DNA of 64,000 bases, from assembly GCA_031409275.1 (NCBI GenBank), contig JANNXA010000055.1, positions 192,001 to 256,000 on the forward strand, written 5' to 3'. Shown here in pieces: positions 38,490-56,144 of the stretch. The notes beneath the pieces were generated by a model that was not told where the DNA came from, searched no databases, and saw only the letters and a list, made by a program, of their open reading frames with translations. This DNA is from Planctomycetota bacterium. Lineage in GTDB: Bacteria; Planctomycetota; B15-G4; SIAN01. How positions within the stretch are numbered: the first letter of the stretch is position 1; each line of letters opens with the position of its first letter. The position numbers were made by a program, and so were the translations under genes.

Positions 38490-39710
38490 TCAGTGTTCGG
38501 TCGGGGACCACTTCACCTGGCTGATGTCGATGCCTTCCTTGGCCATCTCGTAGAGCGGCGACATGTCGCGCAGCCGCTTCACCGCGAAGATCACGCGCTC
38601 GGCGGCGAAGTCGACCTCCGCCTCCGTCGTGAAGCGTCCCATGCCGAAGCGGATCGAGGTGTGGGCGAGGTCTTCGCCGACGCCGATCGCGCGCAGCACG
38701 TAGGAAGGCTCGAGGCTCGCCGAAGTGCAGGCGGACCCCGAAGAGACCGCCAGTTCGCTCATCCCCATCATCAGCCCTTCGCCTTCGACGAACGCGAAGG
38801 AGACGTTCAAGTTGCCCGGCAACCGCTGCGTCGGATGGCCGTTCAGGTAGATCTCGTCGAGCGAACCGCGCAGCTTCGACCAGAGCCGTTCGCGCAACGC
38901 GGTGAGTCGCACCGTCTCGCTCGCGAGCTCGGCCCCGGCGATCTCGCAAGCCTTCCCGAGGCCAACGATGCCCGGCACGTTCAGCGTGCCGGAACGCATG
39001 CCGCGCTCGTGGCCGCCGCCGTCGAGTTGCGGCGAGAGGCGCACGCGCGGGTTGCGGCGCCGCACGTAGAGCGCGCCCACTCCCTTCGGACCGTAGACCT
39101 TGTGCGCCGTCATCGAGAGCAGGTCGATGCCCATGCGCTCGACGTCCATCGGGATCTTGCCGACCCCTTGGGTTGCGTCCGTGTGGAAGAGGATGCCGCG
39201 CGCCTTGCAGAGGCGGCCGATCTCCTCGAGCGGGTGGAGCGTGCCGATCTCGTTGTTCGCCGCCATCAGCGACACGAGCACGGTGTCGGGCCGGATCGCC
39301 TTCTCGAGATCGGCGACGTTCACTTGCCCGGACTTGTCGACCGGCAGCAGCGTGACCTGGCAGCCCTCCTGCTCGAGGCGCTTGCACGGGTCGAGCACCG
39401 CCTTGTGCTCGGTCGGCGCCGTGATCAGGTGGCGCCCCTTCTCGCGGTACATCTCGGCGACGCCCTTGATCGCGAGGTTGTTCGATTCGGTGGCACCGCT
39501 GGTGAACACGATCTCCTTCGCGTCCGCACCGATCAGCGTCGCGATCTGCTCGCGCGCGGTCTCCACCGCCTTCTCGGCATCCCAGCCGAACGCGTGGTTG
39601 CGGCTTGCGGCGTTGCCGAACTTGTCGCGGAAGTAGGGCAACATCGCGTCGAGCACGCGCTCATCGAGCGGCGTCGTCGCCTGGTAGTCGAGGTAGATCG
39701 GGGTCTTCAT
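38490..39710 (-). CDS. iscS: Cysteine desulfurase
   Basis: [65 protein letters not shown]. Confidence 0.98.
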
Positions 39711-39731
39711 GGAGCACTCGCTTCGGATGGT

Positions 39732-40184
39732 TCAGCGGGCGAGCGGCGCGGCGAACGCTTCCGCTACCAGCTGGTCGAAGGTCAGTCCGTTCAACACTTC
39801 GTGGATCTTCTCGTGGACGCGGCGCAGCGGCGCCTTGATGAGGCAGGACGATTCGATCTGGCAACTCGATCCGGGGACCGGCAAGGCGCCGATCGCCGAT
39901 GGCACGCACTCGACGAGTCGCACGTCGCCCTCGAGCGCCCGCAACAGCCCGCCCACCGAGAGCTCATCGGGGGCGATGGCCAGCTCGTAGCCACCATGGA
40001 CGCCGCGTGCCGAGCGGACGAGACCGGCGTGGTGCAAGTCCTTCAGGATGTTGGCGAGGATGGCCGGCGGGATCCGAGTCGAGTCGGCCAGGGCGCGTGC
40101 GCTCAGCGGAACCGAACGTCCGCGCGTGGCGAGGTGCGACACCGCGAGGATCGCGTAGTCGAGCCGTCGTGAGAGCTTGATCAT
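39732..40184 (-). CDS. Rrf2-family transcriptional regulator (IscR-like)
   Basis: KLSRRLDYA, SARGVHGGYEL, three Cys (VEC..SSC..SSC); heads the isc operon. Confidence 0.9.
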   Translation of the reverse strand: MIKLSRRLDYAILAVSHLATRGRSVPLSARALADSTRIPPAILANILKDLHHAGLVRSARGVHGGYELAIAPDELSVGGLLRALEGDVRLVECVPSAIGALPVPGSSCQIESSCLIKAPLRRVHEKIHEVLNGLTFDQLVAEAFAAPLAR

Positions 40185-40245
40185 GGATTTGGCCTCGCCG
40201 GGGCGCCCCAGGCGGTGCAACCGTCGATGCAACCGTCAGAGGAGG

Positions 40246-40330
40246 TAATCCGGATGAACTTGGTACGGATTAACTAGTCGGCGCCACCGAGCTCGGCAAG
40301 GAGAAAATCTGGACTCGTTCGGTACGAGTT
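40246..40330. promoter_or_regulatory. Two candidate Rrf2/IscR-type operator sites upstream of the isc operon
   Basis: Inverted repeat TAATCCG-N13-CGGATTA (40246-40272) and a related copy AATCTGGACTCGTTCGGTACGAGTT (40306-40330; 16/25 positions identical by manual count). Confidence 0.6.
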
Positions 40331-40339
40331 TCCGCCGGC

Positions 40340-41020
40340 TCAGGCGGGAGGCAACAATGCGCGCTCGGTCCAGGCCACGGCACGTCGTTCCAGTTCGTCG
40401 ACGCGGGCCAGCAGTTTCGCTACCTCGCCGCGACGAGCCGCGGCGGGCGCCGACTCATCGCCGACCAGATTGACCAGGACGTTCCACGCCGCGCAACGAG
40501 CCCCGGCACGCAACAGCAGCGCGCCCGATCCAGCGTCGGTCGCGAGCCTCTGATTGACGACGGCGAGCGTGCCGTCGACGAGTTCCATCGCCTCTCGCGC
40601 CACCCGCAACGTCTGCAGCGGAACGTCAGCGGAGTGGGCCGTGGCCGCCGCGACCGCCGCGGTTCGCGCAGCCTTCTCCTCGGCGCTCGCTTGCGGCAGC
40701 TTGCGTGCGCTGCGCACCGCTTCGAACGACGCCGCGTCGGCATCGCCGAGTCGCTGCAGTTCCACGGCGACCGCGAGCAGAGCGGCCTCGACCTTCGCCA
40801 GCACCGGGTCGTGCTCGCTCGGCTCCCCCTTCTTGCCGAACGAGAAGCGGACCGCCATGCAGCCAAGCGCGGCACCGAGCGAACCGGCGAGCGCCGCACC
40901 GGTTCCGCCACCTGGAGTTGGAGTGCGCGCGGCGAGTTGCTCGACGAGCTGCGTGAACGGGGCATCACGAAACGAAGCAGCGGGAGCGTCCACAGCAGCC
41001 CTTTCGTTGGCGCCGCTCAT
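40340..41020 (-). CDS. Cyclodeaminase/cyclohydrolase family protein (FTCD C-terminal / FchA-like)
   Basis: LAARTPTPGGGTGAALAGSLGAALGCM, DADAASF, VPL, NVLVNL; ATGA overlap with the upstream gene. Confidence 0.85.
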   Translation of the reverse strand: MSGANERAAVDAPAASFRDAPFTQLVEQLAARTPTPGGGTGAALAGSLGAALGCMAVRFSFGKKGEPSEHDPVLAKVEAALLAVAVELQRLGDADAASFEAVRSARKLPQASAEEKAARTAAVAAATAHSADVPLQTLRVAREAMELVDGTLAVVNQRLATDAGSGALLLRAGARCAAWNVLVNLVGDESAPAAARRGEVAKLLARVDELERRAVAWTERALLPPA

Positions 41021-41766
41021 TCGCGCGAGCGGCCGCGTGAGCCAGCGAGGATCGCGAGCACCTTGATCAGTTCCACCACCGCCGCGGCCGCCGATGCCAC
41101 GTAGGTCCACGCCGCCGCGCTCAGCACGGCGCGCGCGCCGTCGATCTCGCCGCCGACGAGCACGCCGCTGTTGCCGAGCAAGACGAGCGCGCGGCGCGAA
41201 GCGTCGATCTCGACGGGCAAGGTCACGAGACTGAACAGCACGACGGCGGCGAGACCGATCGCAGCGCCGATCAGCAGCGACGTGCCCAACGGGCCCTGCG
41301 ACGCCATGGCGATGAACATGCCGATCGGCATCAGCAACATCCCGAGCTTCGAGCCGATGCTGACGACCGGCACCATGCGACTGCGCAGCGTCAGCCACGC
41401 GTAGGCATCGGCGTGCTGCAGCGCGTGGCCCGTTTCATGAGCGGCGACGCCGAGCGCCGAGATCGAGCGGCCACCGTAGACCTCGCTCGACAACCGCAGC
41501 GTTTTCGTCGTCGGGTCGTAGTGGTCGCTCAGGAAGCCGCCCACCGACTCCACTCGGACGTCGCTGATGCCGCGCGAGCGGAGCAGCAGTTCCGCGACTT
41601 CGGCGCCCGTGAGGCCGGAGCGTGTTGCAACTTTGGCGTACTTCGAAAAGGCCGACTTGACGCGGGCTTGCATCAATACGGCAAAAAGCATCGCCGCAAG
41701 CGGCAGCCAGATCCCGTAGATCGGGTTCACCCAAGGCGGCATGAACCAATACATGAGCAGCGTCAC
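41017..41766 (-). CDS. Membrane zinc metallopeptidase (YugP family)
   Basis: GFLSDHYDP, VAAHETGHALQH, VTLPVEIDASRRA, VLSAAAWTYVA. Confidence 0.9.
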   Translation of the reverse strand: MTLLMYWFMPPWVNPIYGIWLPLAAMLFAVLMQARVKSAFSKYAKVATRSGLTGAEVAELLLRSRGISDVRVESVGGFLSDHYDPTTKTLRLSSEVYGGRSISALGVAAHETGHALQHADAYAWLTLRSRMVPVVSIGSKLGMLLMPIGMFIAMASQGPLGTSLLIGAAIGLAAVVLFSLVTLPVEIDASRRALVLLGNSGVLVGGEIDGARAVLSAAAWTYVASAAAAVVELIKVLAILAGSRGRSRE

Positions 41767-41882
41767 GATCCGTCCTCCTGCGCCCGCGTCAAGGTGACGC
41801 GCTTTCGCGCGAAACGCAAAGCTTCACCGCAAGCGCAGTGCCCTCCGTGCGCCGCGTGCGGTCGGCGAGTATACGGAGCGCC

Positions 41883-43037
41883 ATGGACGCTGTTGGCGCG
41901 CTCTACCTCGATCACAACGCGACCGTTCCGCTGTTGCCGGAAGTGCGCCGCTGCCTGCAAGCGGCTCTGAACGGAGAGCTCGCCAATCCATCGAGCCTGC
42001 ATGCGGCCGGCGTGCACGCTCGCCGCTCCCTCGACGACGCGCGCGAACAGGTCGCCGCGCTGCTCCACGTTTCCGCGGATGAGATCGTCTTCACGTCGGG
42101 CGGCACCGAGGCAAACCACCTCGCGCTCGCCGGGCCGCTGCTGCCGCGCCCAGAAGGGGCGCACCTGGTCGTCAGCGCCATCGAGCACTCCTCGACGCTC
42201 GCGGCCGCGCGTCGCCTCGCCGAACTCGGCGCGCGCGTCACCTTGGTGCCGCCGAGCGCCAACGGCATCGTCAAGGTCGATGCGATGGTCGCCGCGCTCG
42301 AGCCGCAGACCCGACTCGTCGCCTGCATGGCGGCCAACAACGAGACCGGCGTCTGCCAGCCATTCGTCGAACTGGCGGCAGCGCTCGCGCCGCGCGACAT
42401 CCCGCTCCACGTCGACGCCGTGCAGTGGCTCGGCCGCTTCCCGCTCGACGCCGCGCAGAGCGGCGCGACCACGATCAGCGCCTCGGCCCACAAGCTCGGC
42501 GGACCGCAGGGGGTTGGCGCGTTGTGGGTGCGCCGCGGAACGCGGATCGAGGCATGGATTGGCGGCGGACGACAGGAGCGCGGCCGGCGCGGCGGAACGC
42601 CCCCGCTCCTGCTGCTGATCGGGTTCGCCGCCGCTGCCGCCGCCACGCGATCGCGCCTCGCCGCGCAGCCCGAATCGACTCGCGCCCGCGATGCGTTCGA
42701 GTCCGCTCTCGCCTCCGGCGGACGCTCGTTTCGCGTCGTCGGCAGCGACGCGCCGCGCCTGCCGAACACCTCGCTCGTACTCGCGGAGGGGCACGATGGC
42801 GCGCAATTGGTCACGGCCATGAGTGCGCGCGGCGTCGAGATCGCCAGCGGATCGGCCTGCCAGGCGGGCGCGAGCGAACCCTCGCACGTGCTGCGCGCGA
42901 TGGGAATGTCGGCGGCGAGCGCGCGCTCCGCGGTGCGATTCAGCTTCGGCAGCGCGGACGATGTCGCGGTCGGACAAGCCGCCGCCGATCGCCTCCTCGC
43001 GTTGCTCGACGAACGCGCCCGACGCGTCGCAGGCTGA
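41883..43037 (+). CDS. Second NifS/IscS-type cysteine desulfurase
   Basis: YLDHNAT, NPSSLH, FTSGGTEAN, ANNETG, SAHKLGGPQG, SGSAC, SHVL.AMG. Confidence 0.9.
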   Translation: MDAVGALYLDHNATVPLLPEVRRCLQAALNGELANPSSLHAAGVHARRSLDDAREQVAALLHVSADEIVFTSGGTEANHLALAGPLLPRPEGAHLVVSAIEHSSTLAAARRLAELGARVTLVPPSANGIVKVDAMVAALEPQTRLVACMAANNETGVCQPFVELAAALAPRDIPLHVDAVQWLGRFPLDAAQSGATTISASAHKLGGPQGVGALWVRRGTRIEAWIGGGRQERGRRGGTPPLLLLIGFAAAAAATRSRLAAQPESTRARDAFESALASGGRSFRVVGSDAPRLPNTSLVLAEGHDGAQLVTAMSARGVEIASGSACQAGASEPSHVLRAMGMSAASARSAVRFSFGSADDVAVGQAAADRLLALLDERARRVAG

Positions 43038-43184: not shown

Positions 43185-45176
43185 ATGAAGCGTACCGCCC
43201 CACTCCTCCTCGCCGTGATCGCCCTCATCGGCGGCCTCGCCTGGTGGCTGCATGAACCGACCGAACCCGCGATCGGCCCGGTTCCCAATCGCGTCGCCCG
43301 CGAAGGCGGCAACGTGGCTCGCGTGCCGGATGCGGTGACCGCCGACGCGACGACGCCCGAGGCGATCCGCCAGACCGAGCTGCCGCCGGAAGATCCGAAC
43401 GAACTGCCGGTGATCGATCCCACCGCACCGCCGGGAGCGATCTACGGCCGCATCCTCGATCCAGCCGGCGCGCCGGTGGCTGATGCGGAAGTGGAGCTCG
43501 TGCGCGGCCCCGCCGCGGCGATCAACATCCCGAGCCTCTACACGCGGCTGAATCTGCTGGTGCGAACCGACGCCGCCGGAAACTACCGCTTCAACAGGGT
43601 CACTCCCAACGACGACTACATCATCGTCGCGAGCCACCCCGACTACGGCGACTGCGAGGCGGGGCCCATCGTGGTCGCCCCCGCCACCGAGCAACCGGCC
43701 GGCGATCTGCGCTTGCGGGACGGCGTGATGGTCGAGGGGTTCGTGCGCTGCGACGGCCGTCCCCTGCAGAACGCCGTCGTCATCCTCAGCAATGCGATGG
43801 AACGGCTGCGCAAGCTGCGCCCCGACGGTCCTCACCCGCCCGACGCCGAGCCCTTCGAGCTGCGCACCGCCACCGATGCGAATGGCCACTACTCGTTCAC
43901 CTCGGCGCCGTTCTCGAGCTTCGAGATCACCGCCGAACTCGACGGCTACTCGCGCATCACGAAGAACTCGCAGACGAGCTTCCTCGGCCGCAGCTCGAAA
44001 GAGCACAAGATCGATTTCGACCTGACGTTGGCGCGGCGCATCACGGGCAGCGTCACCGACGAGAGCAAGAACCCGATCGCGGGCGCGAAGCTGGCCGCCA
44101 CCATCGCGAACCAGAGCTTCCGGTGCGAAGCCGAGGCGCTCACCGACGGTGCTGGCCGCTTCACGATCGAGGCGCTCGCCGAAGGGCAGTACTTCCTCCA
44201 GGCGAGCTGCGACGGCTTCTCCGAATCGCACCAGCAGCAAGTGAACGCCGGCAGCGAAGGTCTCGTGATCGAGTTGCGGGTGCAGGGCAGCGCGGTCGGC
44301 GTCGTCGTCGATGAGGAGAGCGGCGCGCCCATTCCCGAGTTCACGCTGGCGATCCAGCAGCAATACAAGGGACGCGGCCCGATCGACATGAAGCAGAACC
44401 TGCGCTACCACGACAGCGGCGGCCGCTTCGAAGTGAAGAACCTCGATCCAGGTCGCTACACGGTCGAAGGCTCGGCGGCCGGTTATGCCACGAGCGTCTC
44501 CGATGAGTTCGAGGTCACGCGCGGCCAGGTCACGGCCGGCGTCCGCATCGAGATGAACAAGGGCGGCAAGGTCGTCGGCATCGTCGTCGATCGCGACCAC
44601 AAACCGATCCGCAACGCGCTGGTCAGCCTCCGCGACAACGGCACCAAGGACAACCAGGTGCTCGAGATCTTCTCGCAGATGTCGGCGCGAGGAAGCGGGA
44701 TGCCGAAGTTCCGCACCCAGGAAGATGGCCGCTTCACGCTCGATCTGGTGGTGCCGGAGACCTACCAGGTCGCGGTTCGCCACAACCAGTTCGCCGGTCA
44801 GCTTCGGGACGACGTCACCGTGCGCAAGAACGAGACGGTCGACGTCGGTGAGCTGATCCTGCTGCGTGGCGCGCGCATCTCTGGGACCGCCTACGACCTC
44901 GACGGCAAGCCGCTGGTGGGCGCGACCATCACCGGGATGGCCGGGAAGTCGAGCGGCTACAAGTCGACGCGGACCAACAACGACGGCTTCTACGAACTGC
45001 TCAGCATGAACGACGGCGAGTACACCATCACGATCAACAGCTTCCAGTCGAACCCCCCCATGAACCCGCTCGCGACGCTGTCACTCGCGAAGAACAGCCG
45101 TCAGACCGTGCAGGTCTCCGATGGCGACGACGTCACGGTCGACCTGCGCCTCTCGAAGGACAAGCCGAAGGAGTAA
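43185..45176 (+). CDS. Secreted/membrane-anchored protein with repeated carboxypeptidase-regulatory-like domains
   Basis: N-terminal signal/TM and about six repeats of the type GR.LDPAGAPVADAEV...TDAAG.Y.F...PG.Y. Confidence 0.85.
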   Translation: MKRTAPLLLAVIALIGGLAWWLHEPTEPAIGPVPNRVAREGGNVARVPDAVTADATTPEAIRQTELPPEDPNELPVIDPTAPPGAIYGRILDPAGAPVADAEVELVRGPAAAINIPSLYTRLNLLVRTDAAGNYRFNRVTPNDDYIIVASHPDYGDCEAGPIVVAPATEQPAGDLRLRDGVMVEGFVRCDGRPLQNAVVILSNAMERLRKLRPDGPHPPDAEPFELRTATDANGHYSFTSAPFSSFEITAELDGYSRITKNSQTSFLGRSSKEHKIDFDLTLARRITGSVTDESKNPIAGAKLAATIANQSFRCEAEALTDGAGRFTIEALAEGQYFLQASCDGFSESHQQQVNAGSEGLVIELRVQGSAVGVVVDEESGAPIPEFTLAIQQQYKGRGPIDMKQNLRYHDSGGRFEVKNLDPGRYTVEGSAAGYATSVSDEFEVTRGQVTAGVRIEMNKGGKVVGIVVDRDHKPIRNALVSLRDNGTKDNQVLEIFSQMSARGSGMPKFRTQEDGRFTLDLVVPETYQVAVRHNQFAGQLRDDVTVRKNETVDVGELILLRGARISGTAYDLDGKPLVGATITGMAGKSSGYKSTRTNNDGFYELLSMNDGEYTITINSFQSNPPMNPLATLSLAKNSRQTVQVSDGDDVTVDLRLSKDKPKE

Positions 45177-45222
45177 CGATCTCGAGCTGCGATCGCGACG
45201 CGCGGCGGCACGGACGATCCCA

Positions 45223-46629
45223 TCAGGCGAACGCCGGCACCGGAAGCGCGGTCCGACCGATCGCCAATCCGCGTGGCTCCAGCGCAACGTCGATGGCCCC
45301 ACGCCGGCGCGCGGTGAATACGAGGCGCCATCCGATCCGGCGCGCGAGGCGCCGAGCAAGGATCAGTTCCTCGACTCCGCGTCCGCGCGCGGGGCGGCCG
45401 AATCGCAGCACCCGCAGGCGCAGCGCGCGACCTTCGGCCGTCGCACGCACGCGGATCACGGTGCAGCCTTCGGCGCGCGCTCGCCGCGACTTCGCCAGCG
45501 CCGCGAAGAGCGCCCACAGCAGCGCCCTCAGCAGATCGGGATCACCCTCGCACCATTGCAGTCCGTCGGCGTCGAGTCGAAGCCGGCGCCCGTGGAGTTC
45601 CCCTGCCACCGCGGCCGCGGCCTGACGCGCCACCACTGCAAGATCGCAGGAGCGGCGCAGCTGCTGACGCTCCTGCGCCGGCGCTTGCGCACCGTTCGCC
45701 CGAGTGGCCAGCATGGTCTCGAGGTGATTCAGGACTTCCGCGCCGCCCGCGACCGCTTCTTCGAGCGCCGCCGGCAAACGCGGCCCGTGGCGCTCGAGGT
45801 GCGCAAAGAGGCTGCGCAGGAACGCGAGCGGTCGCTTCGCCTCTTCCTCGAGCCACGTGGCCTGATCGCGCAATCGCCGTCGCTCGCGGACGTAGCGCCC
45901 CTGCTCGTCGACGAGCCGCGCGGCGTAGCGCATGAGCGGCGCACGTGCCGGTGCCGCGTCGCCTGGCGCGCCAGGCGGCTCGATCGGTGCCGCCGCCGTC
46001 GCCGGCAGCGGCGCGGAACGGTTGAACGACTCGTCGAGCGCGATCTGCAGCGCCGACAGTCCGATGCCGCAGCCATCGAGCGCGAGTTCGCCGTGCGCCC
46101 GCGTGGCTCCGCGACGCAACAACTCGAGCAGCGATCGCACCACCTCTTCGCCGTCGAGCGCATCGGTGCTGAACGACGGGAAGCGGCCGGACCCGACCAC
46201 CGACTCGAGCTCCTGGGCCGCGACGAAGTCGCCGCCCGCGCGCCGATTGATCAGCAGGACGCCGGGCATCGCGCTTCGACCCGCGCTGCGCAGGCGCTCG
46301 AGCAGCCAGGCGTACGCGATGAGATTGTCGCGCAGGCGCTCGCGACGCGGATCCGCGACGAAGCAGACGCCGTCCGCGTCACGCATCAGCTGTTCTGCGC
46401 GAGCGTTCTCCTCGTCGATCGGATCGAATTCGACGAGCTCGACTTGCAGGGTCGCGAGCGCACCTGGCACGGCGAGCGGCAGCGAGGTCCACTCGCGACT
46501 GCGCTCGGCGCTGCGGCTGCCGACGCGTTCCCGAATGCGCGCGAGGACTTCGCTCTTTCCGGCCCGCCGTGGACCGCACAGCAGGAACCGCAATGCGATG
46601 ACGCCGCCTTCCGCCTCGTATCGAGCCAT
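45223..46629 (-). CDS. MglA-like small GTPase domain fused to a degenerate histidine-kinase (HisKA/HATPase-like) region
   Basis: GPRRAGKS P-loop; LMRDADGVCFVADPRRERLRDNL resembles MglA LKGVDGVVFVADSQ..R...N; C-terminal EEEAKRPL, EGDPDLLRALL and ILARRLARRIGWRL resemble kinase H-, N- and G2-box regions. Confidence 0.65.
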   Translation of the reverse strand: MARYEAEGGVIALRFLLCGPRRAGKSEVLARIRERVGSRSAERSREWTSLPLAVPGALATLQVELVEFDPIDEENARAEQLMRDADGVCFVADPRRERLRDNLIAYAWLLERLRSAGRSAMPGVLLINRRAGGDFVAAQELESVVGSGRFPSFSTDALDGEEVVRSLLELLRRGATRAHGELALDGCGIGLSALQIALDESFNRSAPLPATAAAPIEPPGAPGDAAPARAPLMRYAARLVDEQGRYVRERRRLRDQATWLEEEAKRPLAFLRSLFAHLERHGPRLPAALEEAVAGGAEVLNHLETMLATRANGAQAPAQERQQLRRSCDLAVVARQAAAAVAGELHGRRLRLDADGLQWCEGDPDLLRALLWALFAALAKSRRARAEGCTVIRVRATAEGRALRLRVLRFGRPARGRGVEELILARRLARRIGWRLVFTARRRGAIDVALEPRGLAIGRTALPVPAFA

Positions 46630-46771
46630 GCCCACGCTCCGTTGGCGGCGCCCCGACGTCGCCCCGGACGCGCCGACGGCTCGTTGATCGACTGACGAGT
46701 GGCCGGGATGCAGGTCGCTGCGCCGACGGCGCCGGAGAAACGATTGCTGGTGCCTCCGCACCGGATCGTCC

Positions 46772-48079
46772 TCAACGCGCGGTTGCGCCCGCGGGGAGTT
46801 CGATCAGGCCGCGGCCCGGACGCTCGCTGCGCCCGAGTCGCCAGAACTCGGCGGCCGCCCGTTCGCACACCACGCGCCAGTCCGTGGCGACCGTCGTTGC
46901 GGCGCTCTGGCGCAGTGCGTCCGCGAACTCGCCGCACAGGAGCAGGTCGTCGCGCTCCCGTCCTGCCGCCTGATCGACGAGGTCGCGCCAACTCGCGGTC
47001 CACTCCGCGAGCCGCGCCTCGTTCCCCGTCGACTCCGTGCGCGGCGCCTGCGCGAGCAGTTCGGCGAGACGCGCCCGAAGCGCTGCACGAGTCGCGAGCG
47101 GCGGCGGCGGAAACGGCAGCGCCGCTGCGGTCCGCTGCTTCTGCTGCGACGGACCACGCCATTCGTCGATCGCCCGCTCGAGGCCGTCATCGAAGGTCGC
47201 GTTGGTCGAGGTCGCGCCAAACCAAGGCAGGCCGAGCCGCAAGAGCAGACCGCCCGCCGCGGTCGCCGCCGCGCCGGACGGAAGCTCGCGACAGCGCGTC
47301 AGCGCCGCGCAGAACCACCGCGTCTCGCACGCGCGCCGCTGCTGCAGCTCGACTTCGCCGCGCTCGGAGTCGGACGCCGCGTCGGCCTCCGCCATGGCGA
47401 TCGGAACGACCCAGGTCGCGACGAGACCGCGAACCGCCACCAACTCCTGGCGCGCCAGCTCGATCTCGAGCCAGCCATCGGCGGCGACCTCCTCGGCGAG
47501 CGGCGCCTGCACCCCGCCGGCAAGAACCCCAGGGAAGAGCGCGACCCCCTGCTCGAACGCGCCCGCAGCGCGCAGCGTCGCCTCGAGCTCGACGAAGGAG
47601 AGGGGCGCGCGCGGTGCGCCACGGCGCAGCGCTCGCCAGCCGGGCTGCGACCACGGCAGAGTTCGTTCGCGCAACGTCTCGAGTTCGGGGCGCCACGGTG
47701 CGAGCTCGCCGACGCGCTGCTCGAAGGTGGCGCCAAGGAGCTGGACGGCTCCGTCATCCCCTTCAACCGCCGCGAACAGGAGCGCCGCTCGCAAACGCGG
47801 CAGCTCCAGCAGCGCTCGCTCGAGCGCGACCGCCGGCGCGGGCGGCCAGCGATTCAGCGCCGCCAGCGCCGCCACGACGTCCGCCGGTGCAAGCGCACGG
47901 CGCAACTGCGCCTCGGCCGCCGACCGACGCGCCGGCTCCGACGCATCGAGCTCGACCCGCCACGCATCGAGGCGCGGGTCGGAGCCGTTCGACGCGACCG
48001 CTTGCGGGCATGGCATCCGCGCGCTCGCCGGCGTCGCGGCCGCGACCAGGAGCCACGCCGCCACCAGCGCACGCCTCAT
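46772..48079 (-). CDS. Hypothetical secreted protein
   Basis: Signal peptide MRRALVAAWLLVAAATPASA; ATGA overlap with the kinase stop; alpha-helical, Ala/Leu-rich. Confidence 0.65.
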   Translation of the reverse strand: MRRALVAAWLLVAAATPASARMPCPQAVASNGSDPRLDAWRVELDASEPARRSAAEAQLRRALAPADVVAALAALNRWPPAPAVALERALLELPRLRAALLFAAVEGDDGAVQLLGATFEQRVGELAPWRPELETLRERTLPWSQPGWRALRRGAPRAPLSFVELEATLRAAGAFEQGVALFPGVLAGGVQAPLAEEVAADGWLEIELARQELVAVRGLVATWVVPIAMAEADAASDSERGEVELQQRRACETRWFCAALTRCRELPSGAAATAAGGLLLRLGLPWFGATSTNATFDDGLERAIDEWRGPSQQKQRTAAALPFPPPPLATRAALRARLAELLAQAPRTESTGNEARLAEWTASWRDLVDQAAGRERDDLLLCGEFADALRQSAATTVATDWRVVCERAAAEFWRLGRSERPGRGLIELPAGATAR

Positions 48080-51000
48080 TCGACGAGCTTCCCGCGCAGC
48101 TCGACCCGCTCGATCTGCAGCTCGGTCAGGCTGCACAGCTGAACCGCATCCTTCGCGCGCGCGGTCGGCAGAGTCGCCTGGGTTTCGTAGACGACGTCGC
48201 CGTCCAGCGCCACCTCGATTCGCACCGTGCCAGCGCCTGGATCGGGGAGCCATCGCACCTCGAGAACGTAACGGCGGCCGCGTTCGAGACCGACATCGAC
48301 GACCTTGCCGACCGCAGGCTCGCTCTGGTCATAGATCGGGTCGTAGAAGCGCTGGGTGCTCTCTTCGAGTGCGCCGACCCAGGCCGCGAGTTGCGGCGTG
48401 TAGCTCTCGCCTCTCGGCTCTTCGGGCCGGAAGAAGGCGGCGCAGGCGGGGCCGAGACGAAGCCCGACGTAGTGCGGATCGTCGGGTGCGCCGAGCGTCG
48501 GCAGCAGTTCCACGCGCAAGCTCGCCGGCGCGCGCCGATCGAGCGGGAACGGAAACGTCGCACTCGGCGCCGGGCCGCTGCGGCCGCTCCCGCCGCCGAC
48601 GAAGACGAGGCGCCCGTTCTCCACGCGCAGCGCGTTGCCGCTGACGTTCCAGTCCTGGCCCTCCGTCACCTGATCGAACGCATAGACCACGCGGACCACG
48701 CCATCTTCGGCGAGCGTCCGTTCGCTCGCGTTGCGAGCCACCTGATCGAGCAGCGCGCGCCGTCGCCCCGTTCGATCGAGGTCGCTGAGCAGCGCCTCGA
48801 GGTGTGCGCGATCCGATTGCGCCGCTCGACCGGCGGCGGTGTCGCCGTAGCGGAGCAGGTCGCGCCAGGCCGCGCGCGCCGTTTCGACGTCGCCGGCCGC
48901 GATCGCCGCGTCGAACTGCGCGCGCCGCTCGTTCGCGGCGCCCTCGCGCTGCTCGCGGCGCGCCGCATCGCTCTGCATCTGGTCCTGCAGCGAACGATGG
49001 AGCGCGTCAGCGACCGGCGCACCCGCCAGCCCGTTCAGCTCGAGCCCCAGCGCGCTGCGCTCCTTGGCGTCCCCGAGGAGAAAACGGACGAAGAGGCGCG
49101 CCGGTGGCGCGGTCACCGTCGCGTTCACCGACTTCTCGAGCGACGCCAACGCGAGATCCTCGACCGTCAGGCCACGCCTGGATCCGACCGCGAACGCGTC
49201 GCCGGCGCCGTCGAACTGCACCTTGCCGCGAATGCCGATCCCCTGGCGATCGCGCACGTCGACCTCCTCACCCGCTCGATCGCGCAGGTTCTGGCGCGCG
49301 TGGCCGAACACGGCGATCAAGTCCGAGACGACGCCGCTCCATGCGGCGCGCTCCGCTTCGGGAAGATCGGACTGAGCAGCGATCGCCTCGGCCGCCTCCG
49401 CGATCCGACGATCGGCCAGGAACGGGACGATGCCGGGCCGCCCGCCGACCCCATCGAGCAGCTGCGCGCGCGCCGTGGCCTCGCGATCGCGCCGCGCCTG
49501 CAAGGCCAGTTCCGCGAGGTCGCGCGCCAGCAGCTCCCAGCGACTCTGCAGCTCGGCCGGAAGCGCGCCGATGGCGACCAGCCCGTCCCATGCGGCACGG
49601 TTCGCCTCCTCGACGTCGGCGCGGCGTTTTGCCAGGTCGACGACGGCGCCCTCGCGAGCCTCCGCCAACGCCTTCTGCGCGGCCCGCTCGACCTCGAACT
49701 GCAGATCGCGGCGCGCCCTCGCCACCCGCCCGGCGAGCGAGTCCGCGAGGATCGACACGAACGACGCGGTCGGATCACGATCGAATTCGACGCGCGTCGA
49801 GTCGGGCCATCCGCGCTGCAGCACGGCAGCGGAGACGTCGCTCGCCACGGCGACTCCGGCGCCGCTCAACACGGCGATCGTCGCGGCGGCACAAGCGTTC
49901 GCCTCCTCCTCCGGATAGGACGCCAGCCGCTGCTGCGCCTCCCCGAATCGCTGCGCCTCGAGCAGCGCTTGCACTTCATCGTCGAGCGCGGTCCGTCGGG
50001 CGAGCAGCTCCTGTCGCACCTTTCGGCGCACCTCCTGCTCGAGGGCCTCCTGCTGAGACGTGGCGTTGGCGCGCGCGGACTGGAGCCACGGCTCCACGTC
50101 GACTTCGGCGCCCACGAGCCGTGTCCGCAGCGAAGCGGGCGCGGCCGCCTCGAAGGCGCGCTCGAGTTCAGCGTCGAGACGCTCTCGCGCTTGCGCGAAG
50201 TCGCCACGCGCGAGCGCCGCGCGGGCTGCCGAGAGGGCCAGCGGCGCCGCCGCGCGCAGTTCCGTCTCGAGGGCGACGCTGGCCGCCGACTTCAGGTCGA
50301 CGCGGGAGAGGCTCGAGACGCTGGTGAGCTGCCCGTCCCGCTTGAGCTCGCCGATGCGCGCCAGCACTTCCGCCGCCGGCCGGGCGCCGCCTCGCCAGCC
50401 TTCCGCGAGTTCGTTCAGCAGCGCTTCCTCACGTTGGCGCGCGTCGCTCCAGTCGACATCGCTGCGGTGGTCGCCCCGCCACAGGAACAGCGCCACGAGC
50501 GCGACCACGAGCGCCGCCGCCGCGGCGATCCATGGGCCGCGACTGCTGCGCGGCGGCGGCTCGGCGGCTTCCTGCCAGGAGAGACCGACCTCTTGCGCCT
50601 GTTCGGGCGCGGTGAGTGCCGCGCGTACCCGCTCGAGGTCTTCGAGCAGCTCCTCGCTCGACTGGTAGCGACGGCGGACATCTTTCGCGAGCAGCCGCGC
50701 GAGCATGCGCGAGAAGCCTTGGGGCAGGCCGGGTTGCAGCTGCTCGGGTGGGCGCGGCACCGAGTAGAGCACCTCGTGCAGGATCTCGGCGACCGACTCG
50801 CCGCGCAGCGGCGGGTGGCCCGTCGCGAGGTGGTAGAGCGTGGCCCCGAGGCTGTAGAGGTCGCTGCGCAGATCGACGCGGCGCGGGCTCCTCACCTGTT
50901 CGGGAGACATGTACTGCGGCGTGCCGACGGTGATGCCGTCCTGGGTGAGCGAACGGTCGCGAGTGGCGCGCGCGAGCCCGAAGTCGGTGAGCTTCACCGC

Positions 51001-51453
51001 CCCATCTTTCGCCAGCAGGATGTTGCCAGGCTTCACGTCGCGATGGACGACGCCGTGGCGCGCCGCATGAGCGAGCGCCAGCGCGACCCGCTCGCCGATC
51101 AGGAGGACCTCGCGCAGCGGGAACGCTCCGCGATCGACCAGCAACTGCTTGCAGCTCTGCCCCTCGACGAGCTCCATCACGAAGTAGACGAGGTCGCCTG
51201 CTTCGCCGAAGTCGATCGAGCGCACGATCGCGGGATGGTCGAGCCGCGAGAGGACGCGCGCCTCCTTCGTCAGACGCGCCAGCGCGAGACCGGGGTCGAG
51301 ATCATCGCGGCGCAGCACCTTGAGGGCGACCATGCGGTCAAGGCCCTTGTGGCGCGCCTTGTAGACCGAGCTCATGCCTCCCGACCCGAGCAGTTCGAGC
51401 ACTTCGTAGCCGGGGATCGGCTGGGTCAGCATGCTGGCGCGCTCGTGCTTCAC
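48076..51453 (-). CDS. Membrane-anchored Hanks-type Ser/Thr protein kinase with large extracytoplasmic region
   Basis: LGSGGMSSVYKA, VALK, HRDVKPGN, DFG, GTPQYMSPE, SDLYSLG; TM WIAAAAALVVALVALFLW. Start GTG 51453 or ATG 51432. Confidence 0.93.
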   Translation of the reverse strand: MKHERASMLTQPIPGYEVLELLGSGGMSSVYKARHKGLDRMVALKVLRRDDLDPGLALARLTKEARVLSRLDHPAIVRSIDFGEAGDLVYFVMELVEGQSCKQLLVDRGAFPLREVLLIGERVALALAHAARHGVVHRDVKPGNILLAKDGAVKLTDFGLARATRDRSLTQDGITVGTPQYMSPEQVRSPRRVDLRSDLYSLGATLYHLATGHPPLRGESVAEILHEVLYSVPRPPEQLQPGLPQGFSRMLARLLAKDVRRRYQSSEELLEDLERVRAALTAPEQAQEVGLSWQEAAEPPPRSSRGPWIAAAAALVVALVALFLWRGDHRSDVDWSDARQREEALLNELAEGWRGGARPAAEVLARIGELKRDGQLTSVSSLSRVDLKSAASVALETELRAAAPLALSAARAALARGDFAQARERLDAELERAFEAAAPASLRTRLVGAEVDVEPWLQSARANATSQQEALEQEVRRKVRQELLARRTALDDEVQALLEAQRFGEAQQRLASYPEEEANACAAATIAVLSGAGVAVASDVSAAVLQRGWPDSTRVEFDRDPTASFVSILADSLAGRVARARRDLQFEVERAAQKALAEAREGAVVDLAKRRADVEEANRAAWDGLVAIGALPAELQSRWELLARDLAELALQARRDREATARAQLLDGVGGRPGIVPFLADRRIAEAAEAIAAQSDLPEAERAAWSGVVSDLIAVFGHARQNLRDRAGEEVDVRDRQGIGIRGKVQFDGAGDAFAVGSRRGLTVEDLALASLEKSVNATVTAPPARLFVRFLLGDAKERSALGLELNGLAGAPVADALHRSLQDQMQSDAARREQREGAANERRAQFDAAIAAGDVETARAAWRDLLRYGDTAAGRAAQSDRAHLEALLSDLDRTGRRRALLDQVARNASERTLAEDGVVRVVYAFDQVTEGQDWNVSGNALRVENGRLVFVGGGSGRSGPAPSATFPFPLDRRAPASLRVELLPTLGAPDDPHYVGLRLGPACAAFFRPEEPRGESYTPQLAAWVGALEESTQRFYDPIYDQSEPAVGKVVDVGLERGRRYVLEVRWLPDPGAGTVRIEVALDGDVVYETQATLPTARAKDAVQLCSLTELQIERVELRGKLVE

Positions 51454-51469
51454 GCGTTCCCTCCCCGAT

Positions 51470-53017
51470 TCAGCGTCGTGTCGGCGCCGCGATCGACTCT
51501 CGCAATGCCGCATCGAGACGCTCGGCCGGGATCCCCAGCGCGGCGAACGCTTTCGCGTGTGCCGCCGCCGCCTCGGCGCCGAGCGCGGGGACCTGCCCTT
51601 TCGGCCACTGCTCGCGCAACGCCGCCAGCATGGCGAGGAAGCCGTCCTGCTTCTGCGTCGACAGCCAATCGACCACCACCATCGACTTCGCGACCTCCTC
51701 GGCGGTGATGGTCGACAGATCGCGCTTCAGGATCGGCCCGAACGGCGGATCCTTGCCTTCCTTGATCGCGCGCACCGCGTCGTCGAACCAGCGGTCGCGG
51801 GAGAGCAGCTCCTCCTTGCGGACCCCTTCGGCGCCGTAGCGGCGGCTCGAGATGCAGGAGATCGCATTGCGTCCGAGCACGCGGTGCTCGGTCCAGGCGG
51901 CGAACCCCTCGTCGAGCCAGGTCGGGAGGAACTTCCAGTTGTAGCCGTGGCGGTTCAGGAGGACGTGACCCAGGTGATGCACGGTATGGGCGACCGTGTC
52001 GTCGACGTGGCGAGCGCCACGAAACGTGGCGGAGGTGCCGGTTGGATCCCACCAATAGAAGCCGTCGACCTTCGCCGCTCCTTCGGCCCAGCGCGCATCG
52101 ACCTTCTTCTCTTGGCGCGAGAAGAAGCGCGCGAAGAGGCCGAAGTCGTCCCGCGTATCGACGACCACCGCGAGCGCCTTGTGGCCACCGATCCACGCCA
52201 GGTCGGTGACCGACTCGCGCAGCGCGCCCGCCGCCAGCGCGAAGCTCTTCTCCGACGCCTCCTGGAGCGCGTGCGCATGCGCCTTTCCGAACGCGCTCGC
52301 GACGACGAAATGGTCGCTCGCATCGAAGGTCAGCGCGAGCGACGCCTCCTTGCCGAAGTCGACGGCGCGGCGGCGCGCCAGCACCTCGCTCGCCACCACC
52401 CATTCGGATCCGACGCGCTCGAGTCCGCGCGCCCGCTGCGCGTCGTCGGCGGAAAGCCACCGCCCGTCGATCTGAACGTCACCGCGTTCGAGGTGCTCCT
52501 TCTCTTCTGGCGTCACGAATCGGCCGCTGTAGGGCACGAGGCCGCGCGCCGCCATCGCCGCGGTCTCGTCCGCTTTCACCTTCGCATCGCGCTCGGCCGG
52601 GGTCATCCACTGCCCCTCATGCCGCACCCGTCCGCGCGCGAGGTTGGCGCCCTCGTGCTGCGGATCACGGGCAAGGGCCTTGTCGAGCAGCCGCTCGCGA
52701 TCGCGTCGAAGCGCTTTCGCGCGAGCGAACTCCGCGAGTTCGAACCAAGCGTCGGCGGAAGCATCCGCCTTCATCGCCTTCTCGCGCTCGGCGAGCTCCT
52801 CGGCCGCCGTGAGCCCCTTCTCGATCCTGGAGATGCGCGAACGCTCGATCACCATGCGGCCGAGCGCGGTGTCGATCGTGATGGAGCCCTTTTCCTCGGC
52901 GACCACCTTCCCCTCGAGCTTGCCGCCGTCGCGCAGATGGACCGTGTCGGCGCGCGCCACCGACGCGACGGCAAGTGCCAGCACCATCCCGCAGACAAAC
53001 GCGACGCGCCGGCTCAT
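51470..53017 (-). CDS. Secreted protein with zincin-like (peptidase MA/gluzincin-like) domain, catalytic Glu apparently absent
   Basis: Signal peptide ending ARA-DTVHLRDGGKLEG; HHLGH...PTWLDEGFA resembles HExxH...PxWLxEG. Confidence 0.65.
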   Translation of the reverse strand: MSRRVAFVCGMVLALAVASVARADTVHLRDGGKLEGKVVAEEKGSITIDTALGRMVIERSRISRIEKGLTAAEELAEREKAMKADASADAWFELAEFARAKALRRDRERLLDKALARDPQHEGANLARGRVRHEGQWMTPAERDAKVKADETAAMAARGLVPYSGRFVTPEEKEHLERGDVQIDGRWLSADDAQRARGLERVGSEWVVASEVLARRRAVDFGKEASLALTFDASDHFVVASAFGKAHAHALQEASEKSFALAAGALRESVTDLAWIGGHKALAVVVDTRDDFGLFARFFSRQEKKVDARWAEGAAKVDGFYWWDPTGTSATFRGARHVDDTVAHTVHHLGHVLLNRHGYNWKFLPTWLDEGFAAWTEHRVLGRNAISCISSRRYGAEGVRKEELLSRDRWFDDAVRAIKEGKDPPFGPILKRDLSTITAEEVAKSMVVVDWLSTQKQDGFLAMLAALREQWPKGQVPALGAEAAAAHAKAFAALGIPAERLDAALRESIAAPTRR

Positions 53018-55065
53018 GTCTCCGGGTCCCCGTCGCCCGTCGCCGCCGGAGCGACCGCACCATCCGGCGGAAGCTCCTCGACGCCGCCGTCCACCGTCTC
53101 TCCTGGTGCGAGCGGGCGACCGTCGCCGCCGATGCGGTACTTCTCGAGCTTGCGCTGCAGCGCGAAACGCGAGATGCCGAGCACGTCAGCGGCGCGGCTC
53201 TTGTTGCCGGTCGCGTCCTCGAGCGCGCGGCGGATCTCGGAGCGCTCGAGCGCTTCGACCCGGCCGGTGAGCCCTTCGCGCAGCGGCGGGTCGGCCGGCG
53301 TCGCCATCGCGCGACGGATCCGCTCGGAGAGCCGATCGAGGGTGATCGGATCGTCCGAAAAGGTGATCAGCATGCGGATCTCGTTCTCGAGTTCGCGCAC
53401 GTTGCCCGGCCAGTGGTAGGCGCACAGCGCGTCGAGGACCTCCGGACGCATCTTGATGCCGGCGCGACCCGACTCGCGACCGAAGCGCTTCAGGAAGGTG
53501 TCAGCGAGGAGCGGGATGTCGTCCTTGCGGTCGCGCAGCGGCGGCAACCGCATCGGCAGCACGTTCAGGCGGTACATCAGGTCTTCGCGGAACTCGCCTT
53601 TCGCGACGATCTCCGCCAGGTCCTTGTTCGACGCGGAGATGATGCGCACGTCGACGTGCACCGACTCGCGGCCGCCGACCGGCCGAAACTCGCCCTCCTG
53701 CAGGAAGCGCAGCAGCTTCTTCTGCACCTCAGGGCTCATGTCGCCGACCTCGTCGAGGAAGAGCGTCCCCTTGTGCGCCGTCTGCAGCAGCCCCTTCTTG
53801 CTTTGGCGCGCGCCGGTGAAGGCGCCGCGTTCGTAGCCGAAGAGTTCGCTCTCGAGCAGCGAATCGGGCAGCGCGGCGCAGTTCTCGGAGACGAAGCGCT
53901 GTCCGGCGCGCGGACCGTTCTCGTGGATCGCGCGCGCGATCAGTTCCTTGCCGGTGCCGCTCTCGCCGGACACATGTACCGGGAACTCGCTCGCGACCAC
54001 GCGATCGAGGAGCCGGAAGATGTCCATCATCGGCTTGCTGCGACCGACGATCCGCGAGTAGTCGTTGCCGCCGGCCGCAGCGCGCTCCCGCAGGCGCGCG
54101 CGCACCTCCACGAGCTCGACTTCCTGGACCGCGACGCGTCGCTTCAACTCCTCGTTCAGCAACCGGACGCGCTCCTGGCTCTCCTCGAGCTGCTTGTTGG
54201 CGTCGACGAGGTGCGTGACGAGCCGCGCGCGGTGGACCGCGACGGCCGCCTGTCCGGCGAACGCCTCGGCGAGGCGCAGGTCCTCGTCGTCGAACGCGCC
54301 CTTCGTCATGCGATGGTCGACGTAGACCGCGCCGATCGTCTCGCCCTGCGCGGTCAGCGGCACGACGAGCACCGAACGCAATCCGAGGTTGGTGATCGAC
54401 TGGACGCCCTCGAAGCGCTGGTCGTCGCCGGCGTTCACCGAGAGGAGCGACTTGCCGCTCTCCAGCACGCGCTGCGCGATCGAACGCGAGATCGCGAGCT
54501 CCGGCTCTGGCACCTGGTCGCCGTCGAAGTTGCGCGCGGCGACGAAATGGAGCGCCTCATCGCCCTCGCGCAGGATGAGGAAACCGCGTTCGGCGCCCGA
54601 AAGCTCGATCAGCGAATCGACCACCAGGTTCAGCAGCTTCTCGACGTCGCTCTCGGTCGAGAGCGCCTGCGAGATCCGTTGCAGCCGCAGGTGGTTGCTG
54701 CGCTCGCGCGTCAGGCGGCGCACGAGGTCGTCGTTGGGAAGCGTCGGTCGCGCGATCAGCGAGGTCTCGTTGGGGTCGGGCTCGCGCTCGTAGTAGATGC
54801 GCGTCGAACCGATCGAGACCACGTCACCGGTGCGCAAGTCGGAGCTGAGGATCTGCTGGCCGTTCAGGAAGGTGCCGTTCTGGCTGCCGACGTCGACCAC
54901 GGTGGCGTGGCCGCCCGGCTCGATCTCGATCCGGCAGTGAATTCGCGAGGCGAGGCGATCGCCGATGCGCAGATCAGTGCCGGTTCCGCGACCGATCAGG
55001 ATCGTGCTCTTGTCGAGTGAGAGTTCGCGACGTTCGCCTTCGGCATGGACGATGAAGCGTGGCAT
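53014..55065 (-). CDS. Sigma-54-dependent activator with FHA, GAF, AAA+ and Fis-HTH domains
   Basis: FHA (IGRG..SRIHC..SQNGTFLNG), GAF (AERGFLI..LRSVLVVPL), GESGTGKE, ESELFG, GAFTGA, LFLDE, WPGNVREL, GNKSRAADVLGISR. Confidence 0.95.
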   Translation of the reverse strand: MPRFIVHAEGERRELSLDKSTILIGRGTGTDLRIGDRLASRIHCRIEIEPGGHATVVDVGSQNGTFLNGQQILSSDLRTGDVVSIGSTRIYYEREPDPNETSLIARPTLPNDDLVRRLTRERSNHLRLQRISQALSTESDVEKLLNLVVDSLIELSGAERGFLILREGDEALHFVAARNFDGDQVPEPELAISRSIAQRVLESGKSLLSVNAGDDQRFEGVQSITNLGLRSVLVVPLTAQGETIGAVYVDHRMTKGAFDDEDLRLAEAFAGQAAVAVHRARLVTHLVDANKQLEESQERVRLLNEELKRRVAVQEVELVEVRARLRERAAAGGNDYSRIVGRSKPMMDIFRLLDRVVASEFPVHVSGESGTGKELIARAIHENGPRAGQRFVSENCAALPDSLLESELFGYERGAFTGARQSKKGLLQTAHKGTLFLDEVGDMSPEVQKKLLRFLQEGEFRPVGGRESVHVDVRIISASNKDLAEIVAKGEFREDLMYRLNVLPMRLPPLRDRKDDIPLLADTFLKRFGRESGRAGIKMRPEVLDALCAYHWPGNVRELENEIRMLITFSDDPITLDRLSERIRRAMATPADPPLREGLTGRVEALERSEIRRALEDATGNKSRAADVLGISRFALQRKLEKYRIGGDGRPLAPGETVDGGVEELPPDGAVAPAATGDGDPET

Positions 55066-55076
55066 GGCGCGGATCC

Positions 55077-56144
55077 TCAGGCGGCGGGCGGAAGGGCGAG
55101 CAGCTCGGCGGCGGCCTGCAGGGCCATCTCCGCCGTCAACGAAGTCATGCAACGATGATCGAGGGGACAGATCTTCAAGTGGCAGGGACCGCATGGAACG
55201 TCGACCCGCAGCACTCGCGTCCGTTCGAGGTTGCTGGCCGTATGGCGCGGGTCGGTCGGTCCCATCAGCACGACACAGGCGGTGCCGACGGCAGTGGCGA
55301 TGTGACGTGGGCCCGTGTCGGTGGTGACCAGCACGCGCGCGCGCTCCAAGACCGGCTTCAGCAACTCGAGCGCGATCGGCGCGGACGAGGTATCGAGCGC
55401 CGCCGGCCCGGCGGCTTGCGCGATGCTGCGCGCGAGCGCCTCTTCACCCGGGCCGCACAGCACGACGGTGCGCAGTCGATGACGCTCGTGAAGGCCGCGG
55501 ATCGTCGCCGCGAACCCTTCAACCGTCCAGAACTTCGAGGCACCGAAGGCGGCGCCTGGATTGGCGGCCGCGAACGGCTCATCGGCGGCGAGGCCGAGGC
55601 GCGCCAACTCCGCAGCCGCGCGCGCGCGCTCGTCGTGGTCGATCACCAGGTGGAGCCGCTCGTCCTGCGCCGTCACCCCCACGGACGCCAACAGGTCGAG
55701 GTAGAGCCGCGTCATGGGCAGCGGGAGCCGCCGCTTCCCCTCCATCGCCTGGCGCGGCTTGACGTCGAGCAGGAAGCCTCGCTCCCGCGACCAGAAACCG
55801 ATGAGGCAGCGCGGACGGCTTGCTCGGCCGATCAAGGCCGACGACAGCGAGTGAGGCAGCAGCACGTGGAGGTCGACCGGGCCTTGCGCCGCGATCTCCC
55901 GCCCCGCGCGCCACCAGCCGAGCCATCCGCCGTGACGTCCCCCGCGCTCCAGCGCGAAGTAGCGATCGAAGTCCGGCGACCCACGAAGCAGGCGTGAGGC
56001 TGGCTTGGTGCCGACGACGGTGATCGTCGCGTGCGGTGCCGCGCGTCGAAGCGCACGCAGCGCGGGCGTGGCCATCACGACGTCGCCAACCCAGTTGGGT
56101 AGTCGGACGACGATCACTCGGCAGCTTTGATCGCGAGGATCCAC
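55077..56144 (-). CDS. waaF: ADP-heptose:LPS heptosyltransferase II (GT9)
   Basis: RLPNWVGDVVMATP, NPGAAFGASK, TDTGPRHIA, GPTDP, CGPCHLKICPLDHRCM. Start uncertain. Confidence 0.9.
   Translation of the reverse strand: MDPRDQSCRVIVVRLPNWVGDVVMATPALRALRRAAPHATITVVGTKPASRLLRGSPDFDRYFALERGGRHGGWLGWWRAGREIAAQGPVDLHVLLPHSLSSALIGRASRPRCLIGFWSRERGFLLDVKPRQAMEGKRRLPLPMTRLYLDLLASVGVTAQDERLHLVIDHDERARAAAELARLGLAADEPFAAANPGAAFGASKFWTVEGFAATIRGLHERHRLRTVVLCGPGEEALARSIAQAAGPAALDTSSAPIALELLKPVLERARVLVTTDTGPRHIATAVGTACVVLMGPTDPRHTASNLERTRVLRVDVPCGPCHLKICPLDHRCMTSLTAEMALQAAAELLALPPAA

Follow-up and report, generated by a model that had tools for sequence, protein, structure and literature searches.

A degenerate MglA-like G domain fused to a degenerate histidine-kinase fold in one chromosomal slot of Planctomycetota, and its possible role as a scaffold

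The gene P0001 lies in a window of 64,000 nucleotides (the whole stretch of DNA that was analysed), which corresponds to positions 192,001-256,000 of contig JANNXA010000055.1 in assembly GCA_031409275.1 of a Planctomycetota bacterium. Its minus-strand open reading frame (46629-45223) translates into 468 aa without internal stops, and its start Met is also that of the homologues. No sigma-70 promoter or terminator consensus is found near the gene. An antisense ORF (45121-46695) shows the mirrored codon GC pattern, yet homologues and folds were found only for the minus-strand product, and the antisense frame was rejected. The features of the locus are the following, with residues numbered along P0001.

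45223..46629, minus strand: whole gene P0001, 468 aa, comprising a degenerate MglA-like G domain, helical cap, linker, pseudo-DHp and pseudo-CA
46637..46640, minus strand: GGAG Shine-Dalgarno-like site, 7 nt 5' of the P0001 ATG
46105..46629, minus strand: MglA-type G-domain fold, residues 1-175 (VIA-align to 6izw; profile to 3t12)
46552..46575, minus strand: P-loop GPRRAGKS, residues 19-26
46486..46518, minus strand: switch I remnant, residues 38-48; about 10 residues deleted, with the G2 Thr, Arg finger and equivalent of MglA Asp58 absent
46417..46431, minus strand: G3 position EFDPI, residues 67-71, replacing TVPGQ; Glu at the canonical Walker-B position
46288..46353, minus strand: helix alpha3 DPRRERLRDNLIAYAWLLERLR, residues 93-114, the block with the highest conservation in the degenerate family
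46237..46248, minus strand: G4 NRRA, residues 128-131 (motif comparison across 17 core members)
46018..46104, minus strand: helical cap after the G domain, residues 176-204, common to the intact syntenic fusions
45946..46017, minus strand: Pro/Ala linker, residues 205-228, variable and of low pLDDT
45691..45945, minus strand: coiled coil (long helix) and pseudo-DHp hairpin, residues 229-313, with E262 at the His site
45274..45654, minus strand: pseudo-CA (GHKL-like alpha/beta sandwich), residues 326-452
46772..55194, minus strand: conserved co-oriented upstream genes for an FHA-GAF-sigma54 activator, a peptidase-MA-like protein, a Ser/Thr kinase and an unknown protein
43185..45176, plus strand: convergent CarboxypepD_reg-repeat gene, the slot marker (domain match, synteny)

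The upstream run and the convergent CarboxypepD gene delimit the chromosomal slot that P0001 occupies. In the run, the FHA-GAF-sigma54 activator and the large Ser/Thr kinase (48076-55194, minus strand) are co-oriented and kept together across the relatives examined; the activator has no receiver domain and is 88-95% conserved within the genus. The genes adjoining these two look like heptose and glycosyltransferase genes. No response regulator was found among the window neighbours scanned, and the upstream unknown protein retrieved nothing at >=0.9 in the ESM Atlas. Elsewhere in the window, presumably, lie an isc-type cluster of Rrf2, IscS, IscU, IscA, HscB and HscA (34708-43037), two ORFs resembling topoisomerase VI subunits B and A (4577-7439, plus strand) and three resembling bacterial microcompartment shell proteins (20250-21837, minus strand). 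A second, divergent cysteine-desulfurase-like gene (PF00266, 41838-43037) is carried on the strand opposite to the isc-type cluster.

P0001 has zero matches in Pfam and NCBIfam. A PDB search with the single sequence retrieves MglA at E 1e-5, and a PDB profile search retrieves MglA 3t12 at E 7.6e-11 over positions 3-178. A first AlphaFold model (pLDDT 72), built from 12 degenerate sequences only, matches in Foldseek the histidine kinases RetS/GacS, HK853, DivL and YycG at E 2e-8 to 7e-7, with the RetS/GacS complex 7n0e as best match, and MglA is also matched. For a second model (43 sequences, pLDDT 83) the best structural match is MglA, with a VIA-align Z of 22.0 and rmsd of 2.2 to 6izw (177 aligned); Z is 20-22 for MglA entries versus 17.3 for the next family. 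The VIA-align listing is filled by the G domain, and the fold of the C-terminal half is assigned by Foldseek and hhalign, which find a DHp hairpin and a GHKL alpha/beta sandwich, as in HisKA/HATPase proteins. Profiles of the degenerate proteins and of intact fusions align in hhalign at 99.8% (E 8.8e-28, 448 columns). In the ESM Atlas, one match at 0.97 (a 502-aa, Arf-bearing cluster in which Acidobacteriota predominate) and matches at 0.89 to HisKA/HATPase clusters are leads only. Both halves thus match the Ras-like MglA and histidine-kinase folds that the initial annotation had read from the sequence.

The motifs of the two halves were compared across a core set of 17 degenerate members, or 24 degenerate rows when 7 deeper-branching relatives are included. 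As annotated initially, the GPRRAGKS P-loop and the MglA-like segment DADGVCFVADPRRERLRDN (residues 84-102) are present, and the MglA motifs DRTLFFD and TVPGQ cannot be recognised in the shortened switch I and in EFDPI. The G1 motif GxxxxGKS, including the Mg-binding Ser, is found in all 17 core members, with GPxxxGKS fixed throughout; the P-loop Lys is lost in three of the seven deeper-branching relatives (P0140, P0145, P0146). No core member retains the G2 Thr and Arg finger (DRT), as the region is deleted or divergent. The G3 Gly is likewise absent from all of them, being Pro in most, and the catalytic Gln is absent. At the position of the Thr of TVPGQ, in a register checked against 3t12, all 17 carry Glu (E67 in P0001). 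In MglA the Walker-B residue is Asp58 (PMC11016934); as this Asp is missing here and the canonical Walker-B position has a fixed acid instead, the Glu reads as compensation. G4 reads NRRD in 9 core members, NRRA in 4, HRRD in 2, NRRE in 1 and NQRS in 1, so that Arg stands at the Lys position in 16/17. The NRRA noted initially in place of NKRD is confirmed in P0001 and is atypical of the family, since the G4 Asp, here Ala, is kept in 11/17.

The kinase-like half is altered as well. Glu had been noticed where the phospho-His is expected, and indeed E262 of EEEAKRPL (261-268) occupies the site, from which His is absent in the 17 core and 7 deeper-branching members. The reported lack of the N-box Asn and of DxGxG holds as well: A377 replaces the Asn and DxGxG is absent. 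In addition, the kinase G2 box reads GRGVEEL versus GTGLGL, and the ATP lid is shortened by about 21 residues (9 from V407 to G416, counted from the last strand ahead of the lid to the G2 box, versus 30 in the intact P0013). MglA proteins are single domains of 150-240 aa and usually coupled to mglB, against the 468 aa of P0001. As the catalytic features of both families are missing, P0001 belongs as an enzyme to neither MglA nor HisKA/HATPase.

The absence of mglB from the window is borne out, as the only Roadblock/MglB domains of the genome are two on contig C27, flanking a separate canonical mglA. This canonical MglA (G000:C27:128590-135127, L070) has 371 aa with all G motifs intact and a long low-complexity tail whose hydrophobic end is probably membrane-spanning, as judged by eye; it lies near helical-repeat proteins, and the tail recurs across the order (L010-L016, L055-L064). 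A canonical mglA is also carried by 10 of the 12 fusion-bearing genomes. That the fusion is tied to the MglA-MglB module is no more than a lead, since ten genomes with mglA lack a fusion match and the kin are not independent.

Scoring of 7987 candidates gave eleven full-length homologues with 48-80% identity; the two that bear an organism name are both labelled Planctomycetes. A profile search of 1.84 billion representatives returned just 9 proteins at E 1e-30 or better, so the degenerate family is small. Intact and GAF-containing MglA-kinase fusions are widespread, Acidobacteria included, and among the genomes examined the fusion is confined to families f1 and f2. P0001 itself belongs to the syntenic family by slot position and full-length homology. 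In the same slot, four genomes carry an intact MglA-HisKA-HATPase fusion (G018, G026, G034, G036; cut at the 5' end in G026, and with only the CarboxypepD side visible on three of the four contigs). Two (G015, G030) carry an intact G domain without CA, and one (G006) an intermediate form that keeps T..G of G3 and NKxD and has lost the His. The fully degenerate form occupies the slot in this genome (G000), in G001, G003, G004 and G005, and at the metagenome loci L031, L033 and L034. Finally, the slot is empty of the fusion in G002, of the same genus, and in G008, G012, G021, G024 and G028, which indicates that the gene is dispensable. The count omits G007 (no match), G009 (short contig) and G011 and G013 (not syntenic).

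Other variants accompany this series. The forms without CA (L008:1246-2292 and L007:1102-2148; P0032-P0034) consist of an intact G domain and a helical region, and look like a second, independent loss of the kinase at the same slot. An extra gene is found 3' of the fusion in G005 (L024:2830-4073) and at L034:7742-8488, and occupies the slot by itself in G002 (L084:1236-2530), where the fusion is gone; the L034 copy matches the peptidase-MA-like neighbour weakly, and the three-way likeness was judged by eye. The intact planctomycete fusions P0013 and P0019-P0029 keep TVPGQ with Thr or Ser replacing the Arg finger (DTT, DST), and the 12 GAF-type fusions examined keep DRT. P0139 is a copy of the G005-type protein whose reading frame is lost in places, probably through an assembly error. 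Stand-alone 195-aa MglA variants at L035, L038 and L040 have GKTR, TVPGN or SVPGN, and NMRD, with the catalytic Gln and G4 Lys altered.

P0001 descends from an intact MglA-histidine kinase fusion in the same slot of related genomes. In a tree of the full-length proteins, for which 33 of 74 aligned rows and 483 columns were used, the 13 degenerate rows form one clade with SH-aLRT 100, which is sister to 8 intact rows with 98/96. The AU test did not reject an alternative tree (p 0.236), and a G-domain-only tree by a quick method did not resolve the sister group, owing to a long branch; the full-length tree was therefore used, and synteny carries most of the weight for the origin. Since the His and N-box motif are missing from all 24 degenerate rows and the G3 Thr and Gly persist in some of the deepest-branching ones, the motif distribution suggests that the kinase was lost first and the GTPase switches later.

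The initial annotation had set its reading against a decaying singleton without purifying selection, and selection was estimated as dN/dS by Nei-Gojobori with the same-genus orthologue in G004 as the reference pair. The value is 0.20 for the whole gene, 0.09 for the G domain, 0.16 for DHp, 0.23 for CA and 0.66 for the linker; the nine neighbour genes give 0.10-0.46, all above the G domain. The gene is thus under purifying selection and no decaying singleton. For three more distant pairs, in which synonymous sites are near saturation, dN/dS is 0.37-0.53, and in each of them the fusion gene lies inside or under the span of values of the genes next to it; the iscS comparisons at L031 and L034 were left out, as they involve paralogues. 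Moreover, 77 of the 468 positions are invariant across 11 degenerate members of about 51% mean identity. Collectively, the low G-domain dN/dS, this invariance and an alpha1-alpha2 hairpin fixed in length and sequence argue against a slowly eroding remnant, in which selection would maintain only a foldable, harmless operon-end protein until deletion. Such erosion would fit the cleanly empty slot in six genomes, one of the same genus, the truncated G015 and G030 forms, the long branches and the graded motif loss, and is improbable.

To locate the constraint, 11 degenerate proteins were set against 11 intact ones of matched overall divergence (0.51 versus 0.48). In the degenerate set, mean identity drops in the effector (switch) lobe (0.47 versus 0.74 in the intact set) and rises in the opposite lobe (0.66 versus 0.50); in region 85-117 around alpha3 it is 0.76 versus 0.60. 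The switch regions, at 0.33-0.37, are the lowest of the G domain, and the P-loop region reaches 0.67. DHp rises from 0.41 in the intact to 0.61 in the degenerate proteins, and residues 262-307 from 0.39 to 0.68, while CA is level (0.49 versus 0.48).

In the reading that we favour, with a probability of roughly 45%, this conserved former MglA-histidine kinase fusion would be a constitutive, dimeric, non-enzymatic docking scaffold that holds nucleotide without switching. For such a scaffold we infer nucleotide binding, dimerisation and a partner in three steps. First, P0001 would neither bind ATP nor autophosphorylate, since the His, N-box Asn, DxGxG and ATP lid are missing. Second, the G domain would hold a guanine nucleotide and Mg2+ as a structural cofactor, on the basis of the fixed GKS, the Glu at the Walker-B position and the N and R of G4; the sequence pattern is consistent with a class ii pseudoGTPase, which binds nucleotide and leaves it unhydrolysed. 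Third, the protein would dimerise via DHp and bind partners on two conserved surfaces, one on the DHp hairpin and the other on the G domain along alpha3-alpha5. The likeliest partner for DHp would be a receiver domain or the DHp of another kinase, as in DivL. The missing G4 Asp of P0001 and the loss of the P-loop Lys in 3/7 deeper relatives count against a scaffold with nucleotide.

The same observations, together with Ala at the G4 Asp in 4/17 core members and Arg at the G4 Lys position in 16/17, would suit the same scaffold with an empty pocket. Here the protein would be a class i pseudoGTPase with a K25-E67 salt bridge stabilising the empty P-loop, and a salt bridge does block the site in p190RhoGAP pG1 (PMC5593906). 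We consider this unlikely, though the strongest of the rivals, as GPxxxGKS with its Mg-binding Ser is kept in 17/17, the G4 Asp in 11/17, and the P-loop region is conserved well above the switches.

The initial annotation had instead proposed a double pseudo-enzyme acting as a nucleotide-sensing scaffold. The double pseudo-enzyme scaffold is supported by the two folds, the motif loss in 17/17 and the whole-gene dN/dS. The sensing part is not supported: with the two gamma-phosphate sensors (G2 Thr, G3 Gly) missing and switch I largely deleted, GTP would not be told from GDP, so discrimination is not plausible and binding is. A non-canonical sensor, in which pocket occupancy, or GTP with catalytic residues supplied in trans, alters the kinase-like half, is somewhat less probable than the empty pocket. 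Its P-loop is intact, a low-affinity pocket could sense occupancy instead of GTP versus GDP, and some prokaryotic small GTPases without Gln or Arg are proposed to receive them in trans (PMC4316618). However, none of the 17 core members has the G2 Thr or G3 Gly, switch I is short, conservation within the G domain is lowest in the switches, and a variable linker of 24 residues separates the halves.

Returning to the docking scaffold, its DHp surface can be described further. The invariant pseudo-DHp residues are R266, P267, L271, L274, H277, R280, R284, L285, L289, E291, A294, G295, E298 and L303, and the length and sequence of the alpha1-alpha2 hairpin, constant in the degenerate family, vary in the intact relatives. 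The DHp of P0001 was mapped on HK853 via P0037, using the five positions in the title of PDB 4jas. These rewiring positions (F270, S273, H277, G295, E298) have a mean identity of 0.90 (p 0.036, for a set picked post hoc). The helix-1 positions of EnvZ, placed by His243 numbering, average 0.69 (p 0.47), and the union of the two sets 0.77 (p 0.17). The EnvZ set is that of PMC2991266. As neither the EnvZ set nor the union is enriched, DHp appears constrained as a whole and receiver docking is weakly supported. Receiver matches number 38-88 per genome among the matches listed, with 45 in this genome, in fragmented assemblies.

Silencing of a kinase by DHp heterodimerisation is known from RetS-GacS, and the dead DHp could similarly pair with an active histidine kinase as a dedicated inhibitor. 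The high identity of residues 262-307 (0.68 versus 0.39 in active relatives), the 29 ORFs of the genome that match the kinase profile and 7n0e as top Foldseek match would agree with this. Still, Foldseek hardly separates the kinases from one another (E 2e-8 to 7e-7), a search of this genome for an intact paralogue of the fusion found none, and the conserved G domain would be left unexplained, which makes an inhibitor quite improbable, more so than erosion. The least probable reading, with hardly any weight, is residual phosphotransfer, in which a migrated H277 (or H302) would accept phosphate in a phosphotransferase with a dead CA. H277 is present in 11/11 core members tested and 3/6 deeper relatives and absent in intact relatives, but lies 15 residues past the His site, at the HK853 specificity position T275, and H302 is not invariant.

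A bolder version of the docking scaffold is possible and clearly less probable than the scaffold as such. A G-protein-controlled histidine kinase would have been converted stepwise, kinase first and then switches, into a double pseudoenzyme that regained a Walker-B acid so as to keep nucleotide-Mg bound at all times and docks a phosphorylated receiver or kinase on a newly fixed DHp face. If true, a bacterial class ii pseudoGTPase would be joined to a DivL-like sensor, with all evolutionary stages at one locus.

P0001 can be compared with several known systems. With Group 1 MglA of Myxococcus xanthus and Thermus thermophilus (6izw, 3t12) it shares the G-domain fold including the N-terminal beta0 strand, the P-loop, the DG-hhh-VAD segment and the G4 N; it differs in lacking the G2 Thr, Arg finger and Asp58 equivalent, in reading EFDPI for TVPGQ and NRRA for NKRD, and in having 290 further residues fused and no adjacent mglB. 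A survey of prokaryotic Ras-family GTPases excluded proteins of >240 aa (PMC4316618). The intact Planctomycetota fusions (P0013, P0019-P0029) share the architecture over 448 columns, and the slot in four genomes. They keep G1-G4, H-box, N-box, DxGxG and GxGLG, whereas P0001, at 21-24% identity to them, keeps only G1 and part of G4.

On the kinase side, DivL of Caulobacter forms dimers and binds DivK~P with no catalysis involved (PMC4211667), and PsmA of Streptomyces is described in PMC12963549 as a polar interaction protein; both resemble P0001 in that their HisKA/HATPase fold lacks the phospho-His. In DivL the site is Tyr, an ATP lid is present and TNP-ATP is bound weakly (57 uM), while P0001 has Glu, a deleted lid and a G-domain input. 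On the G-domain side, the pseudoGTPases of class ii (Rnd) and class i (p190RhoGAP pG1/pG2, AAGAB) also combine a Ras-like fold and degraded G motifs in an interaction module (PMC5593906), and the binding face of AAGAB lies opposite its nucleotide pocket (PMC12490416). Those proteins are eukaryotic, whereas P0001 is bacterial, derives from MglA, is joined to a dead kinase and still has its complete P-loop. In the conservons of Actinobacteria (CvnA-D), an MglA-family GTPase is likewise coupled to a histidine-kinase-like protein, but the two are separate proteins accompanied by a Roadblock partner, and CvnA8 autophosphorylates on H183 (PMC13343842). By analogy, P0001 would most likely work like DivL or PsmA joined to a class ii pseudoGTPase.

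The initial remark that no protein of this architecture is described stands for the literature: a full-text search, covering few subscription papers and no supplements, gave no paper on an MglA-histidine kinase fusion among the matches listed, and the Aravind-lab paper on conflict systems (PMC7159879) does not mention MglA. It does not extend to the architecture being unique, as intact fusions occur in related genomes.

All in all, P0001 is a real and conserved gene that is apparently undescribed. The family is small, its genomes are known here from assemblies only and the gene is dispensable in close relatives. Few pseudo-histidine kinases of bacteria are known, DivL and PsmA among them, and the pseudoGTPases characterised in the literature cited are eukaryotic; P0001 holds both dead folds in one protein under selection. 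In a single slot the fusion is intact, truncated, half-dead, fully dead or deleted, which offers a matched set of soluble proteins that may reveal the role of an MglA-kinase fusion devoid of catalysis and the path by which a signalling enzyme may become a scaffold.
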